NCBI RefSeq assembly: GCF_044324875.1
Contig: NZ_CP172185.1
Origin: Escherichia coli
Lineage (GTDB): Bacteria; Pseudomonadota; Gammaproteobacteria; Enterobacterales; Enterobacteriaceae
Direction: 5' to 3' (one strand)
DNA length: 64,000 nucleotides
The first letter of the stretch is position 1. Every line of letters starts with the position of its first letter. The notes beneath the pieces were generated by a model. It did no database searches. It was not told the origin of the DNA and worked only from the letters and a program-made list of their open reading frames with translations. Position numbers and translations under genes: made by a program. Shown here piece by piece: positions 12,341 to 49,925 of the stretch.

Positions 12341-12371
12341 GAAAGCATACGGGCGATGACAAATGCAAAAC

Positions 12372-12455
<84 letters not shown>

Positions 12456-12523
12456 ATGACATGTACTTTGTTATCAATCTGGGGCCAGCAAATGCTGGCC
12501 TGATTTGTTCTTGAGGGAAGACT

Positions 12524-47612: not shown

Positions 47613-48692
47613 ATGTCTAAGATTTTTGATTTCGTAAAACCTGGCGTAATCACTGGTGATGACGTACAGAAAGTTTTCCAGGTAGCAAAAGAAAACAACT
47701 TCGCACTGCCAGCAGTAAACTGCGTCGGTACTGACTCCATCAACGCCGTGCTGGAAACCGCTGCTAAAGTTAAAGCGCCGGTTATCGTTCAGTTCTCCAA
47801 CGGTGGTGCTTCCTTTATCGCTGGTAAAGGCGTGAAATCTGACGTTCCGCAGGGTGCTGCTATCCTGGGCGCGATCTCTGGTGCGCATCACGTTCACCAG
47901 ATGGCTGAACATTATGGTGTTCCGGTTATCCTGCACACCGACCACTGCGCGAAGAAACTGCTGCCGTGGATCGACGGTCTGCTGGACGCGGGTGAAAAAC
48001 ACTTCGCTGCTACCGGTAAGCCGCTGTTCTCTTCTCACATGATCGACCTGTCTGAAGAATCTCTGCAAGAGAACATCGAAATCTGCTCTAAATACCTGGA
48101 GCGCATGTCCAAAATCGGCATGACTCTGGAAATCGAACTGGGTTGCACCGGTGGTGAAGAAGACGGCGTGGACAACAGCCACATGGACGCTTCTGCACTG
48201 TACACCCAGCCGGAAGACGTTGATTATGCGTATACCGAGCTGAGCAAAATCAGCCCGCGTTTCACCATCGCTGCCTCCTTCGGTAACGTACACGGTGTTT
48301 ACAAGCCGGGTAACGTTGTTCTGACTCCGACCATCCTGCGCGACTCTCAGGAATATGTTTCTAAGAAACACAACCTGCCGCACAACAGCCTGAACTTCGT
48401 ATTCCACGGTGGTTCCGGTTCTACTGCTCAGGAAATCAAAGACTCCGTAAGCTACGGCGTAGTGAAAATGAACATCGATACCGATACCCAATGGGCAACC
48501 TGGGAAGGCGTTCTGAACTACTACAAAGCAAACGAAGCTTATCTGCAGGGTCAGCTGGGTAACCCGAAAGGCGAAGATCAGCCGAACAAGAAATATTACG
48601 ATCCGCGCGTATGGCTGCGTGCCGGTCAGACTTCGATGATCGCTCGTCTGGAAAAAGCATTCCAGGAACTGAACGCGATCGACGTTCTGTAA
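47613..48692 (+). CDS. fbaA: Fructose-bisphosphate aldolase class II
   Basis: Translation from MSKIFDFVKPGVITGDD matches FbaA (359 aa). Confidence 0.97.
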   Translation: MSKIFDFVKPGVITGDDVQKVFQVAKENNFALPAVNCVGTDSINAVLETAAKVKAPVIVQFSNGGASFIAGKGVKSDVPQGAAILGAISGAHHVHQMAEHYGVPVILHTDHCAKKLLPWIDGLLDAGEKHFAATGKPLFSSHMIDLSEESLQENIEICSKYLERMSKIGMTLEIELGCTGGEEDGVDNSHMDASALYTQPEDVDYAYTELSKISPRFTIAASFGNVHGVYKPGNVVLTPTILRDSQEYVSKKHNLPHNSLNFVFHGGSGSTAQEIKDSVSYGVVKMNIDTDTQWATWEGVLNYYKANEAYLQGQLGNPKGEDQPNKKYYDPRVWLRAGQTSMIARLEKAFQELNAIDVL

Positions 48693-48715
48693 GATATTCC
48701 TTTCTGCTTATCTCA

Positions 48716-48742
48716 AGGCCCGCTCTGCGGGTCTTTTTTTTG
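48716..48742 (+). terminator. Intrinsic terminator after fbaA
   Basis: CCCGCtctgCGGG hairpin followed by TTTTTTTT. Confidence 0.6.
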
Positions 48743-48756
48743 CTAAAAGAAAAATT

Positions 48757-48857
48757 GCCTGATGCGCTACGCTTATCAGGCCTACACGTATCCTGCAATA
48801 TATTGAATTCGCAGGTTTTTGTAGGCCGGATAAGGCGTTCACGCCGCATCCGGCATG
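48757..48857. repeat. REP/BIME cluster
   Basis: GCCTGATGCGCTACGCTTATCAGGCCTACA and GTAGGCCGGATAAGGCGTTCACGCCGCATCCGGCA units. Confidence 0.6.
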
Positions 48858-48883
48858 ACAAAGCGCACATTGATATCTGTCTG

Positions 48884-48908
48884 AGCCCCGCTCTGCGGGG
48901 ATTTTTTC
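48884..48908 (+). terminator. Second terminator-like hairpin (CCCCGCtctgCGGGG plus T-run)
   Basis: Near-duplicate of the hairpin at 48716-48742, on the other side of the BIME. Confidence 0.5.
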
Positions 48909-49049
48909 GCCAAAAGCAAGGTGATGCAGATGAGAAATCTGTGATCTATTTGGCAAAATTATGCTTTATTGTTTACCCTTGTCAGACTGCCCGTCATAAG
49001 GCGGCGGAGTGTATTTCTCCATTTTGAGTCAGTTGAAAAGGAATATTGA

Positions 49050-49925
<876 letters not shown>

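Follow-up and report, generated by a model that had tools for sequence, protein, structure and literature searches.

Introduction

REP and BIME sequences are among the most abundant repeats in Escherichia coli, and one review describes REPs as being without MITE signatures. The BIME-1 class consists of a Y REP, an L linker with an IHF site, and a Z1 REP, and a motif in the linker is reported to bind IHF (PMC3333891). The Y1 transposase TnpA-REP has been held responsible for spreading REP and BIME sequences; its relatives of the IS200/IS605 type leave no target repeats (PMC3333891, PMC2817692). Elsewhere, the mechanism of REP dissemination is described as one that “remains to be elucidated” (PMC8266576). 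BIME-1 elements, their presence/absence polymorphism, and the BIME in front of mscS are already known. The excision of whole BIME-1 elements was reportedly described by Bachellier et al. in 1997.

Here, we analyzed a 64-kb stretch of E. coli DNA (the window) in which such an element lies between fbaA and mscS. Like the BIME-1 elements described from E. coli, it has the same parts in the same order and sits between genes at the 3' end of a transcription unit (PMC3333891), and like them it is present or absent among strains as a whole element. It differs from a typical BIME-1 in its truncated left arm and in the 37-bp direct repeats around it, each of which contains a complete terminator; moreover, BIME-1 elements were described as single copies (PMC3333891), whereas two of the genomes considered here carry a tandem pair. 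We consider it very probable that a BIME-1 insertion in the common ancestor of E. coli, E. whittamii, and Escherichia sp. E1V33 duplicated a segment of ~37 bp from the fbaA terminator.

Terminator repeats in the fbaA-mscS spacer

The window has the gene order pgk-fbaA-mscS, with a spacer of 357 nt between the end of fbaA at 48692 and the start of mscS at 49050, and the first hairpin begins 23 nt past the fbaA stop codon (Table 1).

Table 1. Features of the fbaA-mscS region (window coordinates)
Feature	Position	Strand	Remarks
fbaA CDS	47613..48692	+	Translation starts MSKIFDF; homologous loci are fbaA in RefSeq
T1, native fbaA intrinsic-terminator-like hairpin	48715..48743	+	Stem of 9 bp, loop of 3 nt, 8 T; terminator scan
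DR1, upstream copy of the terminator module	48716..48752	+	Hairpin, T-run, 12-nt tail
BIME-1 (= RIP or RIB), 131 bp	48753..48883	.	Aligned with a consensus built from 13 full-length BIME-1 copies
Y-type REP GCCTGATGCGCTACGCTTATCAGGCCTAC	48757..48785	+	Inverted repeat with the Z1 REP
Long L linker of BIME-1	48786..48820	.	1 mismatch to CTGCAATATATTGAATTTGCA
Z1-type REP, inverted	48821..48854	-	Partial Rfam naRNA4/REP match
Right outer arm ATGACAAAGCGCACATTGATATCTGTCTG, 29 nt	48855..48883	.	Variant of the consensus ATGAACAAAGCGCACTTTGTCAACAATCTGA
DR2, downstream copy of the terminator module	48884..48919	+	
T2, second intrinsic-terminator-like hairpin	48886..48908	+	Stem of 6 bp, all GC, loop of 3 nt, A, 6 T; terminator scan
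Conserved mscS upstream region, outside the duplication	48920..49049	+	Almost invariant among Escherichia alleles
mscS CDS, downstream gene	49050..49925	+	

The first-pass annotation had described two near-identical hairpins with T-runs on either side of the REP/BIME cluster, and the repeat search and the terminator scan agree with this description. The hairpin cores are CCCGCTCTGCGGG at 48719-48731 and CCCCGCTCTGCGGGG at 48886-48900, with T-runs of 8 and 6 T, and the 13-mer core occurs at only these two sites in the 64 kb (0.08 expected). DR1 is composed of the hairpin AAGGCCCGC-TCT-GCGGGTCTT, 8 T, and then GCTAAAAGAAA, while DR2 is composed of the hairpin CCCCGC-TCT-GCGGGG, an A, 6 T, and then CGCCAAAAGCAA. 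Both T1 and T2 have a GC-rich stem-loop directly before a T-run, and both were labeled terminator-like by the scan. T1 is the stronger structure and the native terminator (predicted RNA fold of -15.1 kcal/mol, z score of -3.8, versus -11.6 kcal/mol for T2); between the two, a G:T pair in T1 corresponds to C:G in T2, and the next pair is lost in T2.

The likeness extends beyond the hairpins. The repeat search returned the pairs 48716-48739/48884-48907 (24 nt, 88% identity, spacing of 168 nt) and 48735-48752/48902-48919 (18 nt, 83% identity, spacing of 167 nt), and these are one gapped direct repeat of ~37 nt. The terminator duplication that had been proposed therefore stands, but not its length of about 30 bp, as the duplicated segment measures ~37 bp and runs ~11 nt past the end first reported. 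The local alignment of DR1 and DR2 scored 37, compared with 15.9 ± 2.4 and a maximum of 30 in 1,000 shuffles of the spacer; the K-12-like allele, in which the 18-nt tails match perfectly, scored higher for this reason (52, with 28 as the highest shuffle score). Of the 37 positions, 4 distinguish DR1 from DR2 in K-12-like alleles and 6 do so in the window.

The DR1 tail of the window (48734-48752) has three substitutions clustered within 12 nt relative to the K-12-like allele (C>T, C>T, and C>A), and these interrupt the 18-nt perfect identity with DR2. One of the changes in this tail, GCAA>GAAA, is common to the window strain and Escherichia sp. E1V33. Approximately 245 records match the window allele at 99% identity or more.

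Other features lie further downstream. The sequence TGTGATCTATTTGGCAAAA is found at 48940-48958, upstream of mscS, and its TGTGATC core, which has the same relative position in most enterobacterial species examined, may be a regulatory or promoter element. MscS has 291 amino acids in the window and 286 in K-12; the two proteins have 1 difference in 284 aligned residues (N283 versus D283), and the C-terminal tail past residue 284 is longer and different in the window.

The BIME-1 element between the repeats

The element contains one Y REP and one inverted Z1 REP with complementary arms, separated by the long L linker, which has 1 mismatch to a core found at 26 other loci. It is extragenic and present as a single copy in the window; the exceptions to single-copy occurrence at fbaA-mscS are Escherichia sp. 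E1V33 and E. coli SW070917, each with two tandem BIMEs. The outer arms are less complete. Relative to the consensus (GAGACTGATGACAAACGCAAAA ... TTTGTCAACAATCTGA), the left arm at fbaA-mscS is short by ~11 to 13 nt and the right arm is present as a variant, and truncated arms were also seen at several other loci. By sequence homology to the reported IHF-binding motif, the linker holds a putative IHF site.

In the Rfam scan, only families derived from REP or BIME sequences were matched (ES036 and naRNA4). The match to RF02751 (ES036), above its gathering score, covers window positions 48778-48820 on the minus strand, i.e., the BIME-1 linker, and the family (ES036/CssrF small RNA) may describe a piece of the repeat element and no distinct small RNA gene. 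Weak matches to GcvB, RyhB, and other families were far under their gathering scores and were taken as chance.

Among the 13 full-length BIME-1 copies, conservation falls sharply beyond (T)GAGACTGATGACAAACGCAAAA ... CTTTGTCAACAATCTGA, and 12 of the outer 15 nt of the consensus pair with each other. Judged from these alignments, BIME-1 appears to have defined termini that resemble imperfect terminal inverted repeats, a possible MITE-like trait, although the left one is absent at fbaA-mscS. In the older BIME nomenclature, these ends probably correspond to the flanking motifs “A” and “B.”

The window holds a second BIME-like element (12355-12481). Outer arms and both REP types (Y and Z1) are present in it, but its linker is short and not of the L type, and only its right end is adjoined by a GC hairpin, GGGCCAGCAAATGCTGGCC.

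Alleles with and without the element in E. coli

Among 5,426 complete E. coli genomes, at least 3,719 carry the full 541-nt filled region, and the filled alleles are uniform. Another 1,620 (~30%) have no BIME and show a single-terminator junction in one piece. In an alignment of Nissle, O145 RM11626, and UPEC132, these BIME-less alleles are exactly 167 bp shorter. Empty-allele sequences were read for these three strains and for two further ones (L005 and L008); in the three that were aligned, the single terminator consists of a DR1-type hairpin, 7 T, and CGCCAAAAGCAA, followed by the sequence that comes after DR2 in filled alleles; conversely, the DR2 tail and the sequence beyond it run on unbroken in the alignment, as in the empty allele. 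The empty site thus holds one copy of the repeat, and in filled alleles the repeats directly abut the ends of the element.

A single terminator in BIME-less strains was the outcome that the first-pass annotation had set as its check, and the 1,620 genomes bear it out. The contrary case named there, both hairpins without the REP cluster, was not seen: no allele with two terminators and no BIME was found in the sampled records from the 5,426 E. coli genomes or in the outgroup species. With two terminators in filled alleles, one in empty alleles, and a length difference of 167 bp, the proposed tie between the duplication and the REP insertion is supported.

Two other sources of the second hairpin were ruled out. 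DR2 was not imported with the BIME from a paralogous locus, as the terminator module occurs at one place per genome, and the hairpins are not part of the element, as they are locus specific and the fbaA hairpin already exists in other genera.

The BIME-less allele of E. coli 536 (positions 460-520 of locus L214, homologous to window positions 48716-48925) has an 18-nt sequence, TCTTTTTTTCGCCAAAAG, twice in succession directly past the fbaA hairpin, and the 3' arm of this hairpin has a 1-nt deletion. In RefSeq, fbaA of this strain is 1,266 nt, compared with the usual 1,080.

Outgroups, polarity, and age of the insertion

A genome scan with MscS returned 80 loci, among which E. albertii, E. fergusonii, and Salmonella were not included. 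In 53 non-Escherichia species of the Enterobacteriaceae, the fbaA-mscS spacer is 158 to 218 nt, and no REP was found in the displayed sequence of these spacers. The outgroups for which the hairpin region was displayed have one GCCCGC...GCGGGC hairpin with a T-run ~25 nt past the fbaA stop codon; in two further species (L022 and L037) the spacer is longer and unrelated. In the outgroups, GCCATTTCAA is the homolog of the E. coli tail GCCAAAAGCAA, which is therefore native target sequence and no part of the element. The ancestral state is one terminator without REP, and the derived state is a terminator, BIME-1, and a second terminator.

E. whittamii (spacer of 361 nt) and Escherichia sp. E1V33 have a BIME at the same place, and the truncated left junction AAAAG[C/A]AA|AATTGCC is common to both and to E. 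coli. This shared, idiosyncratic junction argues for a single old insertion; the linker and the right arm of the BIME have diverged considerably between E. coli and these two. The divergence between DR1 and DR2 exceeds the between-species divergence of the neighboring spacer, which implies either an old event or imprecise copying. Given an old insertion, the empty alleles in E. coli and in strain E69 are most simply read as secondary, precise deletions between the repeats; it is also possible that they are a retained ancestral polymorphism or the result of recombinational replacement. In E. whittamii the T2 hairpin has decayed, and T2 is therefore not universally maintained.

Gains have occurred as well. 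Escherichia sp. E1V33 (L007, positions 974-1500) has three terminators and two BIMEs, and E. coli SW070917 (L215, positions 260-800) carries the 167-nt unit twice in perfect tandem, again with three terminators and two BIMEs. The allele structures indicate that the repeats now act as substrates for recombination or slippage, leading to precise loss of 167 bp and to tandem gain, and that they make fbaA-mscS a small hotspot of both. E. coli strains differ in having one, two, or three terminators between pgk-fbaA and mscS.

The same pattern at other BIME-1 loci

A metagenome scan for the linker core retrieved 120 contigs, representing 26 distinct BIME-1 loci, and a locus-specific GC hairpin is present on both sides of the element at many of them. 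When the 50 nt on the left of each element were compared with the 50 nt on its right, 8 of the 26 loci scored above the 99th percentile of control pairs whose two flanks had been taken from different loci. In an nhmmer census with a model of the 13 copies, in which hits were de-duplicated by strand as the palindromic element matches both strands, 34 distinct loci were found; 7 of these were above the 99th percentile of mismatched flanks (0.34 expected), and in 5 of the 7 the direct score equaled or exceeded the inverted score. At fbaA itself the direct scores were 40 to 64 and the inverted scores 12 to 15, ruling out for this locus a right flank copied from the left in inverted orientation by a template switch within the BIME palindrome.

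Filled and empty alleles could be paired at four further loci. The empty allele has one hairpin in each case: CCGGGTGGTAATACCACCCGG at metE-ysgA, CACCGCCGGTAATCCCGGCGGT at ymdF-rutG, TCCCCCCGAGCGGGGGGA at mog-satP (where K-12 is empty), and AGCGGCGTGGTTAGCCGCTT at yacH-lpdA. The filled alleles have a hairpin, BIME-1, and a hairpin, and they were found in 1,734 genomes for ymdF-rutG, 467 for mog-satP, and 494 for yacH-lpdA, while that of metE-ysgA comes from only one metagenome contig of a non-coli Escherichia. At these four loci the repeat (18 to 23 nt) comprises little more than the stem-loop, and the position of the element between the hairpin and the T-run is clear at metE-ysgA and ymdF-rutG. 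The two metE copies differ by a double change, T:A to C:G. Because two of the loci established by an empty allele do not pass the flank test, this test is conservative, and decay of the repeats is plausible.

Terminator duplication around BIME-1 is thus not peculiar to fbaA-mscS, although this locus is atypical in that its 37-nt repeat includes the T-run and its left arm is truncated. Repeat lengths at the five loci were 37, 21, 22 to 23, 18 to 20, and 20 nt, without the fixed length of an ordinary target site duplication. The signature of one hairpin in the empty site and a hairpin on both sides in the filled site provides a testable constraint on how BIME-1 spreads, and this doubling is not predicted by the favored Y1-transposase model.

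A further locus, chbG-katE, was rejected as a filled/empty pair, as its alternative allele has a different hairpin and is no empty site. The BIME-less allele there (E. coli DH5alpha, L212, positions 300-460, compared with L111) has the stem-loop GGTAAGGTCAC...GTGACCTTATC; the spacer is replaced, with no simple filling or emptying.

Proposed origin of the duplication and possible role of the second terminator

We propose that BIME-1 integrated just past the native intrinsic terminator of fbaA and that this integration would have duplicated the hairpin, the T-run, and 12 nt, leaving one copy on each side of the element. The target was probably extruded as a hairpin or cruciform from the AT-flanked terminator; AT-rich flanks, which are typical of terminators, favor cruciform extrusion. 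The two strands would then have been broken on opposite sides, at the feet of the hairpin, and gap filling would have copied the whole hairpin. Breaks at the hairpin feet would explain why the length of the duplication tracks the hairpin and is not a fixed number. At fbaA the scheme would have been irregular, with the right-hand break 16 nt past the hairpin and the left tip of the element lost, or, as is also possible, a later conversion may have restored the T-run to the upstream copy. Because the transposases of the IS200/IS605 group leave no target repeats, the staggered-break step is one that we infer. As to function, T1 probably ends most pgk-fbaA transcripts, and T2 is a candidate spare terminator that likely also shields mscS.

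We suggest, more tentatively and with some doubt, that BIME-1 is in general like a MITE whose integration targets are extruded terminator hairpins and whose target duplication is defined by structure and variable in length. If so, such integration would explain why REP and BIME sequences are found at the 3' ends of transcription units, and it would conflict with a simple Y1 “peel-and-paste” reaction, which leaves no duplication. Terminators would then be the targets of the element and, through the repeats, also the means of its later precise loss or tandem growth.

A rather improbable but live alternative is template switching during replication, in which the fork would have halted at the hairpin, used a BIME-1 at another site as its template, and restarted upstream of the hairpin by way of short homologies. 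No transposase is known to make such repeats, and this leaves room for a replicative origin. The fbaA locus is where it fits best: the repeat is longer there (37 nt, T-run included), both joints fall in sequence that is similar between target and element (GCCAAAAGCAA and GACAAACGCAA are alike at the left joint, as are TTATCTCAAGG and ATCTG(TCTG)AG at the right), and the truncation of the left arm at fbaA and several other loci is consistent with imprecise copying. It does not extend well to metE-ysgA, ymdF-rutG, mog-satP, and yacH-lpdA, where a full-length element with sharp ends has no visible homology at its joints, and the sharp consensus ends with their 12/15 inverted repeat look like termini recognized by an enzyme.

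A different explanation, about as improbable, concerns selection: the pair may be kept as a dual terminator or attenuator, with T2 and the BIME insulating or tuning mscS behind the very highly expressed fbaA and the likeness of the hairpins resulting from structural selection. In its favor, the 6-bp GC stem of T2 is still perfect after a double change that preserved pairing (G:T to C:G), and its T-run is retained; the filled E. coli alleles are uniform; and BIME-plus-terminator elements upstream of mscS and other genes have been proposed as attenuators (PMC2965389). However, double changes within a hairpin can also come from intrahairpin templated mutation, the T2 hairpin is destroyed in E. 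whittamii, and the second terminator is missing in ~30% of E. coli and in all other genera examined and is therefore dispensable. Such a role would in any case account for the retention of the pair and not for its origin. Whatever the role of T2, annotation pipelines and screens for terminators or attenuators will count the duplicated copies as independent terminators.

It is very improbable that tandem slippage duplicated the terminator first and that BIME-1 was later inserted between the copies by coincidence. Small tandem duplications do occur at the fbaA terminator, as the doubled 18-nt sequence in E. coli 536 demonstrates, but the two-module, BIME-less intermediate was missing from the sampled E. 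coli records and the outgroup species, and the element would have had to land exactly on the joint, and to do so again at four loci with unrelated hairpins. That the two hairpins are unrelated and alike by chance or convergence is hardly credible, for although a GC hairpin with a T-run is common in spacers (the scan found six terminator-like sites in 900 bp), the likeness covers an 18-nt nonhairpin tail (18/18 identical in K-12-like alleles), the DR1/DR2 alignment score is far outside the shuffles, and the exact 167-bp presence/absence difference takes out one hairpin copy with the BIME.

Comparison with known systems

Insertion of BIME-1 with duplication of the terminator invites comparison with several described systems. 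The screen of Naville and Gautheret (PMC2965389) already contained this BIME and the terminator that follows it ahead of mscS and read them as part of an attenuator regulon, with no mention of the second terminator as a duplicate of the fbaA terminator or of the polymorphism of the element. Apart from this screen, a literature search on the fbaA/mscS terminator gave nothing useful. Neither the duplication of the fbaA terminator around the BIME nor, more generally, hairpin-length repeats flanking BIME-1 was found in the searchable literature; key older papers lie outside that search and could describe them.

Two predicted hairpins ~170 nt apart past a highly expressed operon are also reminiscent of operons such as rrn, in which two intrinsic terminators follow one another and a short RNA lies between the two (PMC8144298). 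At fbaA-mscS, in contrast to those pairs, T2 is a copy made by the insertion and is missing in ~30% of strains.

Among mobile elements, the REPIN-RAYT (TnpA-REP) system is similar in that its mobile unit is presumed to be a REP doublet in inverted orientation, and tandem REPIN clusters in Pseudomonas repeat flanking sequence too (PMC3116915), as do the terminator-BIME arrays described here. The difference lies in the target, since Y1 transposases of the related IS200/IS605 group leave the target unduplicated and repeats are seen here. ERIC/IRU and Correia elements are like BIME-1 in being small and noncoding, with ends that look like imperfect terminal inverted repeats (12/15 in the BIME-1 consensus) and a flanking repeat that is present once in empty sites, but the BIME-1 repeat is 18 to 37 nt and coincides with the target hairpin, with no set stagger of a few base pairs, and no transposase matching BIME-1 is known.

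Class C bacterial group II introns, according to what Robart, Seo, and Zimmerly are said to have reported in 2007, home to intrinsic terminators. These introns encode a reverse transcriptase and insert after the T-run, and the hairpin is not duplicated. They are therefore like BIME-1 as mobile elements that choose terminator stem-loops and unlike it in being retroelements that leave the hairpin in a single copy.
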